Below, one piece after another: positions 43,025 through 49,684 of a stretch of DNA of 64,000 nt. A model generated the notes under the pieces. That model did not search any database. It saw nothing but the letters and a program-made list of their open reading frames with translations, and was not told where the DNA came from. Numbering within the stretch: position 1 is the first letter of the stretch; every line of letters begins with the position of its first letter. The stretch is from Candidatus Pelearchaeum maunauluense (GTDB lineage Archaea > Thermoproteota > Nitrososphaeria_A > Caldarchaeales > Caldarchaeaceae). A program made the position numbers and the translations under genes. The DNA is taken from assembly GCA_030059675.1 (NCBI GenBank), contig JANVYQ010000002.1, positions 32,001 through 96,000 on the forward strand, written 5' to 3'.

Positions 43025-43659
43025 ATGAGGAAATACGAGCTCCCACAGCTACCGTATTCCTACGAGGCGCTGGAGCCTTATATATCCCGCGAAATAATGA
43101 CGTTGCACCATAGCAAGCATCATCGGGCCTACGTAGACGGCGCTAATGCTGCCTTAGAGCGCCTAGAAAAGCAGCGCAGAGGAGAAAGTCAGGAGAACGT
43201 AAGAGCGATTTTGAGGGACCTTAGCTTTAATCTATCAGGCCATAAGCTGCATAGTGTATTTTGGTGTAACATGGCGCCGCAGGGCAAAGGAGGAAAACCA
43301 GGAGGAGCAATAGCAGACCAAATAAACAAAGACTTCGGCAGCTTCGAAGCATTCAAGAAACAATTCAGCGACGCAGCAAAAAACGTAGAAGCAGTAGGAT
43401 GGGCAATACTAACATACGACCAAGAATCAGACACCCTACTAATCTACCAAGTAGAAAAACAAAACTTCATGCACCCACCACACCTACCACTACTACTAAC
43501 ACTAGACGTATGGGAGCATACGAGGCTGGGCGTATTGCCCCCTCGGCTCAGGCCTACTACCTCCAGTACAAGAACGACAGAGCAAGCTACGTGGAGCAGT
43601 GGTGGAACGTGGTTAACTGGGACGATGTCGACAAACGATTCTCTAAGGCCAAAGTTTAA
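43025..43659 (+). CDS. sod: Fe/Mn superoxide dismutase, spliced model join(43025..43519,43552..43659), 200 aa
   Basis: [32 protein letters not shown] then [20 protein letters not shown] in a different frame after a 32-nt insert. Confidence 0.93.
43520..43551 (+). other. Candidate bulge-helix-bulge mRNA intron (32 nt) in sod
   Basis: GAGC/GCUC 4-bp helix flanked by 3-nt bulges AUA and AGG; cutting after the second bulge nucleotide gives CAU|GCC (His-Ala). Confidence 0.88.
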
Positions 43660-43715
43660 CTAAGTTTTCCACATAATATTTTATATCCCAAAATTATTTT
43701 GTTTTTTATAAAATA

Positions 43716-45250
43716 TAGGGAGGGGAGTGGTCGGGTATAGTAGTCTATCTGCTCAATTTATCGCTGTCTATGTGGACAATATCCATAGAATCCTTTCGCT
43801 AGGTTGCAGTTAAAGCATAGAACTTGGAATTCCTCAGGAAAGTTGTTTTTAACTATCCATTTATAAAAGTGTATTCCCCAGCCTACTTGCTTGAAATGTC
43901 GTAAACCTCCTCCGTTTACGTGGTCTATTGATAGGAATTCAAGTCTAGTCTCGCCACAACAACTACAACGTGGGACTCCCCTGCTATAATACCTGAGTAT
44001 TTCCTTTCTTTCCTCAGCTAGTCTGATAGCCACTATAGACTTATGAGGGCATTATTCCATAAAGTGCTATTGCTTTATTGCAGTTGTAGCAGAGAACTCT
44101 AAAGCCTTCAGGGAAATTGTTCTTGATGATCCAGCAATAAAACTCTGTCCCTCCCCTAATCCTATAGCGACGCTTCTGTAAACTGCCATCCTGACGTATA
44201 TGGTCAATCGAAAGGAACTCTATTCTATCCTCGCCACAACATGTAGATTTGCCACCGTAGCGTTGTATCACTAAGGATTTAATCCGTCTTCTTCGCCGTC
44301 TCTCTCTTTCTCTGCGAATTTCGCGAAGTCTATCCCGACGTCGCCAATATGATTCACACCATATCTTGCGTACTCGCTCTTTGTTTCTTTCGAAATAGCG
44401 AATCCAACGACGATGTTGTTTTATTTTCGCATCATCTAACTTAGAGGAACTACTGCTCAATGCCTCCACCTCCCTACGCCCCTAGCACCAGCTCTACGGG
44501 AGCGCCTGCTCCTAAAAATCGTAGAGCTAAGCGCCTTTGTTCTACCGCCATCCAGGGCTTGATGGCGGTCCCGCATAGGCAGGGCCTTCATACTCCCCCT
44601 TGGTAACATATTGGGGGGCGGCCCGCTTGGCCGCGAGCCCCTGCCGTGCAGAACCGCCATCAGGTCGGCGACGCTAACTGTATTCAGAAGCACTCGCCGG
44701 AACTAGCTGGCAGATGACACTCGGCAGAAGGATAGCAGTATTTCCATCACCTGTCCAGGTTCTCCTCCCGTGTCTTCTCCAGGATACCCTCTACGCTGCC
44801 CCGTTCACCGCGTGCTCCAGGCATAGTTAAGCCCTTCACCGCACGCTCCAGGAAACAGTGTAGAAGTATCCGTTCACCGAAGACATGGGAGGATATCGGC
44901 CGTCATCTAGGTTCTGCATGCGGAGTATTGGCTCCGGGCCGGAACAGCCCTAGAAGCACCCTTCACTACTTGGCTCCTGGAGTCTAGCTAAACCTCCTTT
45001 CACCACCAAGCTCCAGGCAACCCCTAGAGCTGACCAACCCTTCACCACCAATACACCCACATGCAGCTCACCCATCAGGCCGACCTCCGTGAGGCTCAGG
45101 CTAAAACTCCCTTGAACATCAGGCGGAAGCCTAAGCCCCCGAGGCTCGGCACCATAACCCGACCACCCTCCGCCCGGACTCAAATAACTATCCGGGCGTC
45201 ACCCTATTTCAGGTGAGGACAGGAAAGAGAGAGGCTGGGCCGGTCGGGCT
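43716..45250 (-). ncRNA. Candidate large structured RNA with multiple K-turn/K-loop motifs, enclosing the HNH ORF in its 3' terminal stem
   Basis: Many long GC stems whose mismatches become G-U pairs on the minus strand; repeated CCUGGAG-N-GGUGAAGG motifs; 44464-44476 pairs with 43716-43727. Confidence 0.65.
43758..44460 (-). CDS. Tandem (double) HNH endonuclease-like ORF split by a 1-nt frameshift near 44052
   Basis: Two copies of CCGE..EFLSIDH..GG..FY.WI.KNNFP..F.VLC.NCN.A...YG.CPH; removing one base joins them as CPHKSIVAIRLAEE. Confidence 0.8.
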
Positions 45251-45256
45251 ACTTAA

Positions 45257-45613
45257 CTAAACATAATATTCTATTGCTCTAACTGGTTCTAGCTTTCTTG
45301 TTATCGGATTTACTCTCAGCCCTAGAGTCTCTAACGTTGTTACGCCTATCAATGGTTTTTCGTTTTCGTCCGAGAAAGTTACTAGAACTGGTCTCCTGGT
45401 GTTGTTTATCTCTATATCCGCTAGGCCTGCGCCTCTGCTTATAACTCTTCCATCAGCAAGCTCAACCTCAACCTCGTACCTCTTCTCTATCCCAACGAGC
45501 TCGGTGACTTCCTTAGGAACCTTAGTAAAGGTCGCACCAGTATCGGCTACACCATCAAGCTCGTAAGAACACTTAGGCCCGTGTATTCTGAAGCGGACAA
45601 GCACCTCTCCCAT
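45257..45613 (-). CDS. Clan AA aspartyl protease-like protein
   Basis: ADTGAT, LADGR, PLIGVTTLETLGLRVNP. Confidence 0.88.
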   Translation of the reverse strand: MGEVLVRFRIHGPKCSYELDGVADTGATFTKVPKEVTELVGIEKRYEVEVELADGRVISRGAGLADIEINNTRRPVLVTFSDENEKPLIGVTTLETLGLRVNPITRKLEPVRAIEYYV

Positions 45614-45636
45614 GCTACCTCTCACCTATATTTTCT

Positions 45637-45987
45637 TTACATAAGAATCTCTTTAGCTTGTCTATGAAGGCCTGAACTATTTCTGTCCCTCTCCTAACGA
45701 AGTCATCGCTAAGCCAGCCTTCATAGGAGTTCGTAGAGGCTGTTAGCTACGTGAAATGCGTCTACAAGCCCTTGCTCTGGATTCTCCCTATCAAGCTGTG
45801 AGACAAATTGGAATAGGCTTGCGTGAGTCCCCAGCGATATGCCCTTAGACGCGGCGACAGCCTTAACTGCTTCAACAACGGCTAACCAAAGCTTCCCCGA
45901 CGCCTGCGCATAATCTCCATTCCTCAACATCTCCTCAGCCTCCCTGAGGAGCTTGCCGCTAAGCTTAAGACGTTCATTAACGCTCAA
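45637..45987 (-). pseudogene. PaREP1 family protein, frameshifted near 45735
   Basis: GDYAQASGKLWLA; C-terminus (YEGWLSDDFV) lies in another frame. Confidence 0.75.
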
Positions 45988-47567: not shown

Positions 47568-47629
47568 GGCTCAAGTATCTATTCAAGTTTCTTCTCAAGT
47601 TTTTGGTCAAGTTATTTTTATAAGCAGGT
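47568..47629. repeat. Third 12-bp-period array (four TCAAGT units) followed by TTTTATAAGCAGGT
   Basis: Units at 47568, 47580, 47592 and 47604; inverted relative to 46455-46528. Confidence 0.8.
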
Positions 47630-47878
47630 ATTTTGTGTCTGTTTCTTTATATTTTTCAATGCATAGGTCTTTTAGGGGGGTACATATTAGGTAGACCATA
47701 GGCTACTTGTAGTTGTTAGCAACGTGAGAATCGTGTGAGCGAGCTTTTTATCCTTATTTAATTAATTTCCTTTAAGGGGTAAGGGGATGGGGTTTGATTG
47801 TTCTTTTTGGGTATCGAAGGCGAGAGAGTCGGGATATCCTGTGTGAGGAGGATCTTGTGTTGATTATTTGAAGGAGAG

Positions 47879-48202
47879 TTGTGTGTAAAGAAACCTTCAG
47901 AGGCAAAGGAGGAAATCGTCTATACGCCTGCACCACAGCCTACCGAAAAAGCTGTGAAGGAAAAGAAAGAAGAAAAAACTGCTTTTGAAGAATACACAAG
48001 AATATATCTTAAATTAAATGTTCCCATAGGGCAAATATCTACTATTGCCAAAATTGTAAACTACTTGAATGGCTTGTTCAAAGAATGTAAAGTGAGAATT
48101 GAGATAACTGCGCAAAACGGAAAAATTAGGGCTACTGATTACGAAAACAAAATAGAAGAAGCTCTAAGACAGGCGGGGGTTGATGTTGAAAGTAAAGAAT
48201 GA
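47879..48202 (+). pseudogene. C-terminal remnant resembling DUF499-type ATPase proteins
   Basis: VPIGQISTI...YENKIEEALRQAG terminus; no N-terminal part. Confidence 0.45.
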
Positions 48203-49431
48203 AATTGCCGCTTGCCTAACAGCAGTTGTCCGAAATTGCAGGCGACAAGCTTGTAAATGTCAAAAAGGATTTAATACGAGAAGGATATTGTCCTAAACGT
48301 GATGGGAGGCTATAAAAATGAAGGTAGTTTCATTTACTTTTTGTAGGTTCGCTTGTATATTTGCTGTATAACAAGACAATTTTAGGAAAGAATTTTACTC
48401 TATTTCCATTTAGGAAAATAATTCGTAAAAAATACTTAGAACAAATTAATAGACGATGAATGGAGAGAATAATACGAGCACGTCGCACAACAAGCGGGTA
48501 TCTGCCTTTGCTCACTTCGTTCGTTCCAAATTTGCAAGCTTTAATCAATTCTCGTGTTAGGTATATGCGTTCAGAAGACTTAAAAGCCTAATAGTCAGAT
48601 TAATACTAAAGTTAAAGCTGAGATGGTAAAATGATCAAAGTTATCAGAAAAGGTAGAGTTTTAGAGAAAGTGCTTGCAAGAACGCCAAAAGAAGCAGCCT
48701 CCAAAATCTTAGGGATTAACCCAGCTAAGCTGAAGCTCATCAAGAAAACTGAGAGGGATGACTATGTTTTGGATTCGAAGGGGAAAAATTGAAGTTTGGG
48801 AAGTTTTGCCTGCTGTGTGGGATTATGATATTGGACCAATAGCTCGATCCGTTTGACTAGAGATACCAGACCCAGAGACTAGGTCGAACCCCAAAAACCC
48901 GATCGCGTTCGTAGTTGGTGTCGTGGGTGCTCTGCTAAGAAGTATTCGGTTCCCTCCGTTTAGATTTCCTTAACAAGCTAACTACTTTACGAACTTGCTG
49001 AGGAGGATAAATGCAGACTCCAGCTTTCGATTTTGTCTGAGCATCGACCGCAGTAGGGGTGCGGGTGGAGCTGTATGCACATGGTTTGATCTTATAAGGC
49101 AATTCTTGATCACGCAATTCCGAAGAAATCGAGAAAAAATCGTGAACATAATTGCAAGTAGAATCGATGATACGGCAAAAGGAGAGCTTAGCAAGAAGCA
49201 CGAATATTCAAGGGCAAAGAACGATAAGAGAAGTGGAGGTTGTATTGAAAGATGAGATAATAGATAAGAAAGAGTATCAGGAAGACATGAGACTGAGAAG
49301 CTTAGCCCTTAATTTAAACATGGAGAAAGAGTAAAAGCCAGCGATCTTGCAGATGTTGTTCTTAAAATCATCAAGGACCCATTGAGCGATTGAACGGTGT
49401 TGTTACTGATATTGCGAGAAAGCTTGGTTAT

Positions 49432-49611
49432 ACACCTTCCACTACTACTAACACTAGACGTATGGGAGCATACGAGGCTGGGCGTATTGCCCCCTCGGCT
49501 CAGGCCTACTACCTCCAGTACAAGAACGACAGAGCAAGCTACGTTGACACTTGGTGGGTACTGGTCAACTGGGACGATGTCGACAAGCGCTTCTCCAAGG
49601 CTAAAGCCTAA
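49432..49611 (+). pseudogene. sod: Duplicated sod 3' fragment with an identical BHB intron (49472-49503)
   Basis: [13 protein letters not shown][32 nt][35 protein letters not shown]; no 5' part. Confidence 0.9.
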
Positions 49612-49684
49612 TTAAGTTCCCCGCACATATATTATATCCCAAATTTTATTTTTTTAAAATATAGGAAGAAGTCTTCTCACAAAT

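Follow-up and report, generated by a model that had tools for sequence, protein, structure and literature searches.

Architecture of the sod Locus

We analyzed the superoxide dismutase gene sod of the uncultured, thermophilic archaeon Candidatus Pelearchaeum maunauluense and the DNA that follows it, within a 64,000-nucleotide stretch of contig JANVYQ010000002.1 (positions 32,001 to 96,000 of the forward strand, assembly GCA_030059675.1), hereafter the window, whose own coordinates are used throughout. The assembly is a draft of 1.79 Mb in 21 contigs and is 94% complete; in our genome numbering the window is G000:C9:32001-96000. Exon 1 of sod, coding for an Fe/Mn superoxide dismutase (SOD), lies at 43025-43519 on the plus strand (Sod_Fe_N, E 1e-31, and Sod_Fe_C, E 4e-18, in Pfam) and ends with ...DVWEH, after which the reading frame is broken. 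It is followed on the same strand by a 32-nt bulge-helix-bulge (BHB) intron (43520-43551), placed by a hand-built structure and by the fact that its removal mends the frame, and by exon 2 with its stop codon (43552-43659; EQWWNVVNW...KAKV*), recognized by translation and orthologue alignment. The 3′ end of the gene is present again downstream, and the two copies bracket, as direct repeats, an insertion-like segment of 5952 bp. We call the interior of this segment E1 (43723-49431). Beyond the second copy lies another cassette, E2 (49669-51572), which is followed by a third, degenerate sod tail, referred to as frag3 and found by alignment (51573-51616, plus strand). The array therefore reads, in order, sod, E1 (5952 bp), sod fragment 2, E2 (~1.9 kb) and sod fragment 3. 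A scan of the window for tRNA genes found none, and Rfam, run over the window with gathering and E-value thresholds, gave no credible match.

Direct Repeats of the sod 3′ End

The left direct repeat (43480-43722, plus strand) comprises the last 40 nt of exon 1, the intron, exon 2 and 63 nt past the stop codon. The right direct repeat (49432-49668, plus strand) is a 5′-truncated sod fragment that includes a second copy of the intron (49472-49503, plus strand; a repeat of the first) and has the tail DTWWVLVNW...KAKA*. The core of the repeat (43480-43673 and 49432-49625) is 89% identical; two short extensions prolong it as far as 43722 and 49668, with a spacing of 5952-5946. When 42001-52000 was compared with the whole assembly by BLAST, the 243-nt repeat was found at these two places only (87.2% identity, E 2.9e-78), and with such an E-value over 243 nt in the entire assembly the two-copy repeat cannot be attributed to chance. 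The original prediction for this locus, made by inspection of the letters, had reported a 106-bp identity at an offset of 5952 bp, and pairwise alignment bore this out, as 43487-43592 is identical to 49439-49544 over 106 nt. Positions 43480-43485 also match between the copies, leaving a single mismatch at 43486. The further claim that the copies then diverge while keeping the protein and a similar AT-rich region after the stop codon was likewise corroborated by alignment, translation and the repeat search; the AT-rich stretch past the stop codon is alike in both. In all, a single difference separates the left and right copies in the 113 nt before 43593, and the 67 nt from there to the stop codon hold 16. 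Nine of these 16 tail differences crowd into 18 nt (43593-43613 versus 49545-49565; GAGCAGTGGTGGAACGTG versus GACACTTGGTGGGTACTG), a patch that turns the conserved WWNVVNW into WWVLVNW, and elsewhere the tails are ~14% different.

Comparisons with other organisms were made in a sample of 76 genomes of the class, 59 of which have a match to the sod tail. G000 and G001 belong to one genus (g1), G002 to a second (g2) and G003, G006, G008, G009 and G013 to a third (g3). Counted by eye on the aligned sequences, the 113-nt tract, taken in three parts, holds 1, 2 and 3 differences between the left copy and G001 (6 in total), and the tail holds 8 in 64 positions; for the right copy, the tail count against G001 is 17 of 64. 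Both G001, of the same genus, and G004 match the left tail (EQWWNVVNW), and E1 DNA was found in neither. Because the copies differ at 1 of 113 positions in one part and at 16 of 67 in the other, and because G000 and G001 differ at six positions in the same 113 nt, a recent event is needed, and we infer that the identical tract of 106-113 nt, intron included, goes back to a recent gene conversion from one copy to the other or to a crossover there between sequences that were already identical. The tract spans from the cut left edge of the fragment to 43592 with the intron inside it, and the intron of the fragment may have been copied from the gene.

Recurrent Use of the Same Site

The third sod tail is short and degenerate, and two measures of its similarity to sod were obtained. 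Its local alignment scores 41, whereas the best of 200 shuffles scored 30, and an nhmmer search with a profile of 22 sod-tail sequences recovered it at E 5.9e-5 when run over the window and at 0.0016 over the genome; in neither did this profile find a fragment beyond the three. The right end of E2 (~445 nt) is 91% identical to G002:C18:550-1000, the sod genes of G000 and G002 being 72% identical, and the junction between E2 and the sod tail is shared with G002:C18, the homology ending inside the sod-like piece. G002 also resembles the left end of E1: in G002:C23 the sequence past sod is homologous to E1 through the first of its two HNH endonuclease open reading frames (ORFs, described below), crossing 43722/43723. 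The similarity of G000 and G002 to the right of sod is clear only from ~43705.

In genus g3 the sod locus is syntenic, and the next conserved gene begins ~70 nt past sod in G009 and G013. G003, G006 and G008 carry extra DNA behind sod, which amounts to ~2.1 kb in G008. There, the first 700 nt past sod hold a DUF2283 gene (E 2.2e-10), an upstream ORF with no family and a piece similar to the 297-amino-acid ORF of E2, and on either side of this cassette stands a copy of 42 nt of the sod tail (38 of 42 positions the same, score 64, 700 nt apart). The G008 sequence equals that of G006 and G003 up to ...AACTGGGACGACGTCGA and then switches to a different type of tail, the same as that of its downstream fragment. 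The region of the cassette is 77% identical or unalignable to G006, and the flanks are 89-92% identical.

The junctions of frag3, G002:C18 and G008 all start at a AACTGGGACGA motif, and the short sod-tail repeats of all three genera begin at the codons for NWDDV. Read by eye, these codons hold an 8-bp palindrome, CGACGTCG in G008 and CGATGTCG in G000. A further sod 3′ half (~320 nt, intron-less) lies at G032:C11:25950-26269, away from the intact sod of that genome, with a ParA-type ATPase gene and small helix-turn-helix ORFs at a distance of 1-3 kb; no integrase was found near it.

We also considered whether the arrangement could have been produced by assembly. A mis-join at the 106-nt repeat could have combined a chromosome carrying sod, the right tail and E2 with a 5952-bp circle carrying the left tail, or else two strains could have been merged. 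The integrated form and the chromosome-plus-circle form share all words shorter than 106 nt, and the genome is a 94%-complete draft, both of which leave room for such an error. However, the left edge at which the right copy is truncated (49431/49432) is a genuine junction whichever form is true, the sod-HNH junction is independently present in G002:C23, and a 106-nt repeat is spanned by ordinary 150-nt reads, so we regard an artefact as quite improbable. In the one listed DNA run, a 5% share of the sampled words was found, with relatives at 85-95% identity, and no joints were seen; at 85% likeness this run gave short contigs of relatives only and left 48012-49347 uncovered.

An old tandem duplication of sod, after which the second copy lost its 5′ part and the DNA between the copies was replaced, is in keeping with tails that differ at 16 of 67 positions, about as much as species of the genus differ from one another (8 of 64 for the left copy against G001). 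G000 also resembles two haplotypes placed in tandem, a sod-HNH unit as in G002 and a sod-E2 unit as in G008. Even so, the homology between the units ends after 243 nt, with nothing else in 43723-49431 matching 49669-55400, and no genome among the 59 that match the sod tail shows two tandem sod genes at this locus, the second matches being short fragments or distant paralogues on other contigs. We thus consider a duplication of this kind very improbable.

A Proposed Docking Site for Small Mobile Cassettes

ORF families were assigned with Pfam, NCBIfam and PHROGs, and recombinases were also sought in the assembly in six frames. No match to an integrase was obtained among the ORFs of E1 and E2, nor any to a transposase among those of E1. 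In the six-frame search PF00589 was found only at C2:279454, where one tyrosine recombinase is located on another contig and where PF16795 matched weakly, and the assembly gave no resolvase, Cas1 or IS605 OrfB (PF00239, PF01867, PF01385). Both types of search therefore agree with the earlier statement that no integrase lies between the repeats, and the suggestion that the element is a relic or non-autonomous fits an insertion-like block without a recombinase.

What we observed directly are the repeats and the array, the lack of a recombinase and the recurrence of the site in three genera. Together these lead us to favor, as somewhat probable, the interpretation that the 3′ end of sod in this archaeal family serves small mobile cassettes as a recurrent docking site, that E1 is a mosaic which is non-autonomous or decayed, and that the repeats are remnants resembling attachment (att) sites. 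How the insertion took place, in which direction the event ran and how the copies were converted can be proposed from the sequences. Incoming DNA would have carried a sod-like segment and recombined with the 3′ end of the chromosomal sod, leaving the att-like repeats. The recombinase may have acted in trans or been lost, or host homologous recombination may have done the work, and a later gene conversion or crossover would have homogenized the tract of 106-113 nt. The idea of an element integrated in sod, as originally put forward, is in these respects broadly right, since an insertion-like block consistent with an integrated relic is present and the site is reused; the proposal that the intron formed the recombination core found no support, as discussed below.

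Two geometries are conceivable for this event. In the classical one the crossover would lie near 43592, the left tail would have been brought by E1, and the right tail would be the displaced earlier tail. In the reverse geometry the crossover would lie near the TAAAATATAGG shared at 43712-43722, the sod fragment would be the right end of E1, and the left tail would be native. Two points speak for the reverse geometry: the left tail agrees with G001 and G004, in which no E1 DNA was found, and the similarity of G000 and G002 becomes clear only from ~43705. The classical geometry has a precedent in the tail switch of G008. A native tail appears to fit the left copy better than an element-borne replacement copy does, but either geometry may be the true one.

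Integrated elements of this general kind have been described in thaumarchaea, where 14 of 68 lay in 3′-distal portions of protein genes and where arrays reusing one site were reported (PMC6563490). As far as that survey is considered here, its elements share with E1 the insertion at the 3′ end of a protein gene, the gene-derived flanking repeats and the tandem arrays that reuse a site, and sod is not among the target genes in the part of its list that was covered. E1 and E2 differ from those elements in that they have no integrase or other recombinase and in that the repeat contains a BHB intron. Similarly, the genomic islands in tRNA and tmRNA genes treated in the Islander study (PMC4383910) resemble E1, in the parts of that study used here, in having an intact gene on one side and a 5′-truncated 3′ fragment at the far end; unlike them, E1 has a protein-gene target, a left tail that looks native and no integrase. 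Taken as a single object, E1 is a decayed member, lacking a recombinase, of a kind of element that has been described before, and it lies in an array where a site in a protein gene was used recurrently. The target-derived repeats, the reuse of the site, the turnover of cassettes and the empty site in some relatives fit an integration hot spot at which elements accumulate. With this, sod joins the protein genes that serve as docking sites for archaeal mobile DNA, and the repeated use of one site within a single family by small toxin-antitoxin, defence-like and endonuclease cassettes, all without a recombinase, puts in question what moves them.

Several observations weigh against the docking-site interpretation. 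None of the sod fragments examined (window, G002:C18, G008 and G032:C11) has a recombinase beside it; a search for sod 3′ fragments next to tyrosine recombinases had been proposed as a check in the original prediction. An empty sod locus in relatives, another check proposed there, was found for the E2-type cassette (G009 and G013), but not for E1 itself in the sample; we rejected G001, the only other genome of the genus, as an empty-site reference for E1, as it is not syntenic around sod, its 10-kb contig sharing only sod with G000 and ending at the sod stop codon. The repeat, at 243 nt and with diverged tails, is much longer than the crenarchaeal att sites, for which the portion of the survey covered gives 29-69 bp and a median of 45 bp (PMC6563490). 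In G008, both copies of the repeat share the "foreign" right half, which suggests that a ready-made cassette was imported by homologous recombination and speaks less for a new site-specific event. Lastly, the left tail of G000 follows species relationships (G001, G004), unlike the classical situation in which the element supplies a new tail.

Some of these points lead to an alternative, Campbell-type homologous integration, in which a circular DNA, either plasmid-like or an excised island, that had captured ~240 nt of a foreign sod 3′ end would have crossed over at the right edge of the homology with no site-specific recombinase, the first 113 nt being homogenized by later gene conversion. A long repeat (243 nt) with diverged tails speaks for this model, as does a left tail that looks native and matches G001 and G004. 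The homology of G000 and G002 to the right of sod, moreover, resumes near 43705, close to the end of the left/right similarity at 43722, no integrase was found in the window, and the cassette of G008 looks as if it had been imported with both repeats through flank homology. The model nevertheless needs a separate explanation for the capture of the sod fragment, and the sod-tail repeats of ~42-45 nt that start from the same AACTGGGACGA motif in three genera resemble a defined att site. We consider it unlikely, while giving it an appreciable chance.

A BHB Intron Within the Repeat

The intron can be folded into the strict hBHBh′ (helix-bulge-helix-bulge-helix) form. The outer helix is GUA(U)GG/CCUAC, the 4-bp central helix is GAGC/GCUC, and two 3-nt bulges, AUA and AGG, lie on opposite strands, 4 bp apart. 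The inner helix, CGAGG/CCUCG, is closed by a GGGC/GCCC hairpin, and all 14 pairs are Watson-Crick. This structure has a free energy of -21.2 kcal/mol, compared with a minimum free energy (MFE) of -21.5 for the 55-nt stretch. The archaeal splicing endonuclease cleaves each bulge after its second base; 43519 and 43551 are the last bases before the two symmetric cuts. Once these 32 nt are taken out, sod encodes a protein of 200 residues (...DVWEH|AYYLQ...) that is colinear with the intron-less SODs of G002, G004 and G008. By sequence criteria, the sod intron is genuine, and it is rare; its splicing is predicted.

Among the 59 genomes with a sod-tail match, short open frames at sod were seen only in G000 (129 amino acids) and G001 (103 amino acids), the G001 match being also cut by a contig end. 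DNA comparison located the intron in G001, with two substitutions in the inner loop, and it is absent from the sod genes of G002, G003, G004, G006, G008, G009 and G013, as well as from those of G005 and G039, whose matches are split. In a vent metagenome, the contig of one relative joins exon 1 directly to sequence read as intron-less exon 2, and another contig spans the intron with one change; a metagenome scan with the intron and its flanks gave 0 matches. A literature search for a sod intron found none, later transcriptome studies lying outside its coverage. In 2009, cbf5 had the only confirmed archaeal pre-mRNA intron, others being merely predicted, according to the part of that report used here (PMC2738675). 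Like the sod intron, the cbf5 intron of Crenarchaeota is short, of the BHB type, located in a protein-coding gene and present in a lineage-specific manner. The cbf5 introns are mostly described there as unconventional BHB introns, in contrast to the strict hBHBh′ form predicted for sod, and, unlike the cbf5 case, the sod intron has a second copy in a gene fragment (PMC2738675).

The original prediction had proposed that the dyad symmetry of the intron might serve as the recombination core. We found instead that the other sod-tail junctions (frag3, G002:C18 and G008) begin ~60 nt downstream of the intron site, and that G002 and G008 have an intron-less sod. The intron is a passenger of the repeat, not its core. 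A second proposal, that the element spreads the intron between sod alleles, survives in a weak sense only, namely that the identical tract contains the intron. A correlation between intron and island did not appear across G000, G001 and G002: G002 has the HNH gene without the intron, and G001 has the intron without detectable E1 or HNH DNA. A rare BHB intron of a protein gene within a tract that appears to have been copied recently offers a concrete setting for testing the spread or retention of introns at the DNA level.

Putative HNH Genes and the Structured Block Upstream of Them

Two HNH endonuclease ORFs occupy the left end of E1 on the minus strand, ORF 1 with 91 amino acids at 43758-44033 (phrog_2255, E 3.9e-5) and its tandem paralogue ORF 2 with 142 amino acids at 44041-44469 (phrog_2255, E 1.2e-4), which is 52% identical to ORF 1 over residues 18-88. 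The pattern CxxC...IDH...LCxNCN is invariant in 16 aligned members, including 14 relatives from viral contigs, and of these 16 two match Endonuclease_7, one HNH_5 and one HNH_3. The structural model of ORF 1 is a confident one, with a pLDDT (predicted local distance difference test) of 87.5, and in fold it comes closest to the Gme HNH nicking endonuclease 4h9d (E 0.065) and then to Cas9 HNH domains; HNH nucleases thus head the fold search, yet none reaches E 0.001, and a sequence search of the PDB with ORF 1 gave no relevant match. Both ORFs carry the HNH motif, the fold agrees weakly, and we designate them putative endonucleases. Relatives were found on 79 stretches of viral contigs and in 2 of the 76 genomes, G000 and G002 (a pseudogene with four stops), in both cases directly behind sod.

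The position of these genes raises the possibility of homing, in which the free-standing HNH enzymes would cut an HNH-less sod near its 3′ end and repair would copy the module and co-convert sod. The intron might then protect the sod of the carrier, as in the "collaborative homing" of T-even and cyanophage systems, and the duplication would be a by-product of imprecise repair. Homing of a free-standing HNH gene with co-conversion of its flanks is established for mobE of phage T4, and the locus described in the part of that report used here shares with ours small HNH genes that lie in the intergenic space immediately after a conserved gene and are patchily distributed, as well as an abrupt shift of identity in the neighbor (PMC2790892). 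The present case differs in that it concerns an archaeal chromosome in place of a phage and a duplicated target, the HNH enzymes being putative, and in that the intron next to them is a predicted protein-spliced BHB intron and not a group I ribozyme. The HNH motif and fold, weakly supported as they are, the 79 viral-contig relatives, the two genomic occurrences right after sod and the sharp identity boundary in sod 66 nt before its stop codon all point in the direction of homing. On the other hand, the target is normally not duplicated in homing, G002 has an HNH pseudogene without the intron and G001 the intron without a detectable HNH gene, and the E2-type cassettes, which have sod-tail repeats, lack an endonuclease. 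We therefore judge homing to be an improbable source of the arrangement.

Directly upstream of the HNH genes lies a GC-rich, structured and apparently non-coding block of ~700 nt (44495-45205, minus strand), delimited by folding. Its MFE is -371 kcal/mol on the minus strand (z-score -9.6 against shuffles) and -304 on the plus strand (z-score -9.1). The variable columns fall on the three codon phases 65/64/59, that is, with no 3-periodicity, and we ruled out the block as coding sequence for lack of codon periodicity. There are three copies in 2 of the 76 genomes, with 72-73% identity (the window, G000:C19:1144-1750 and G032:C28:9931-10534), among which 20 of 203 predicted pairs hold through double changes. 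An endonuclease ORF directly follows each copy on the same strand: in the window these are the two HNH genes, and after the remaining copies they are LAGLIDADG_3 ORFs (E 4.7e-7 and 4.9e-17). Identity between the two LAGLIDADG proteins is only 27%, compared with 72-73% for the block, which is thus conserved far better than the gene that follows it. On C19, the block ends exactly where a fragment of a P-type ATPase gene begins (C19:1751-3016; matching the E1-E2_ATPase profile from position 116), and this gene appears to be broken by the block and the LAGLIDADG ORF; the contig begins 61 nt beyond that ORF, hiding the other side of the break. The block may be a possibly new structured RNA with an exchangeable homing-endonuclease gene, known in three copies only.

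Other identities for the block, and further copies, were sought as well. Rfam assigned no family to the block or to its two other copies, recognizing only the tRNA-Thr and tRNA-Gly genes that flank the G032 copy, so a group I or group II intron or an rRNA is without Rfam support. No additional copy turned up in the 76 genomes with a covariance model built on a 138-position sub-block, and a 21-nt word invariant in the block occurred 0 times in metagenomes and 0 times in viral contigs, genome contigs giving the G032 record only. Five viral loci found with an 18-nt word of the block were dismissed as chance by the covariance model (12.4 bits, E 0.18). It is conceivable, although we give it little probability, that the left arm of E1 is a new archaeal mobile module, made of a structured RNA and an exchangeable endonuclease, that homes to the sod 3′ end, leftover sod fragments, one of which has the BHB intron, serving as templates by which intron and tail variants pass from one sod allele to another through gene conversion. 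If true, such a module would be an archaeal, protein-spliced counterpart of collaborative homing by an intron and a free-standing endonuclease.

Other Contents of E1, E2 and Their Surroundings

The remaining ORFs of E1 are of several types. Those on the minus strand are an ORF of 122 amino acids for a clan AA (retropepsin-like) aspartic protease (45257-45625; PF13975, E 2.6e-6, and TIGR03698, E 7e-13, below the cut-off of that model), a truncated PaREP1/HEPN family ORF of 88 amino acids (45721-45987; PF05942, E 6e-16, profile positions 2-89 of 115), a DUF4258/BrnT-like toxin (47133-47411; PF14076, E 1.9e-7) and its DUF2283 antitoxin partner (46936-47148; PF10049, E 4.5e-16). Judged by these families, E1 is a mosaic of selfish or defence-type modules and no recognizable virus, plasmid or conjugative element. 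The repeat search also detected an inverted pair of 12-nt repeat arrays of the TCAAGTTTCTAC type (46455-46612), which forms a long imperfect palindrome, and a third such array upstream of the toxin gene (47559-47629), so that arrays stand on both sides of the toxin-antitoxin pair. These arrays occur nowhere else in the assembly and may be operator or iteron-like sites, or cassette ends. The right part of E1 (47700-49431, plus strand) is AT-rich and has small ORFs of no known family, among them one of 107 amino acids (47879-48202) with just three relatives in a set of 5.8 billion proteins. The GC content of the right third of E1 is 38-39%, versus 50-51% at 44-46 kb.

E2 carries the 297-amino-acid ORF (49685-50578, minus strand), which belongs to a widespread archaeal family with 281 relatives at E <= 0.001 in many archaeal lineages. 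The protein of the window itself has no Pfam match. Distant members of the family have an EVE (PUA-like) domain fused to a second domain (precomputed Pfam; P0082, E 8e-6), and the ORF possibly encodes a modification-dependent nuclease of a defence type. E2 further holds a DUF2283-like fragment (50765-50907), recognized by its similarity to a DUF2283 gene, and an ORF of 52 amino acids with no known family (51349-51507).

On a larger scale, sod sits in a variable 27-kb region of lower GC content (window 28000-55000, 37-50% GC, with flanks of 52-57%), no part of which is syntenic with the sod loci of relatives. This region holds five PaREP1-family genes outside E1, split glycosyltransferase ORFs, a DDE fragment of the insertion sequence type (ORF 37688-38047) and several toxin-antitoxin-like ORFs.

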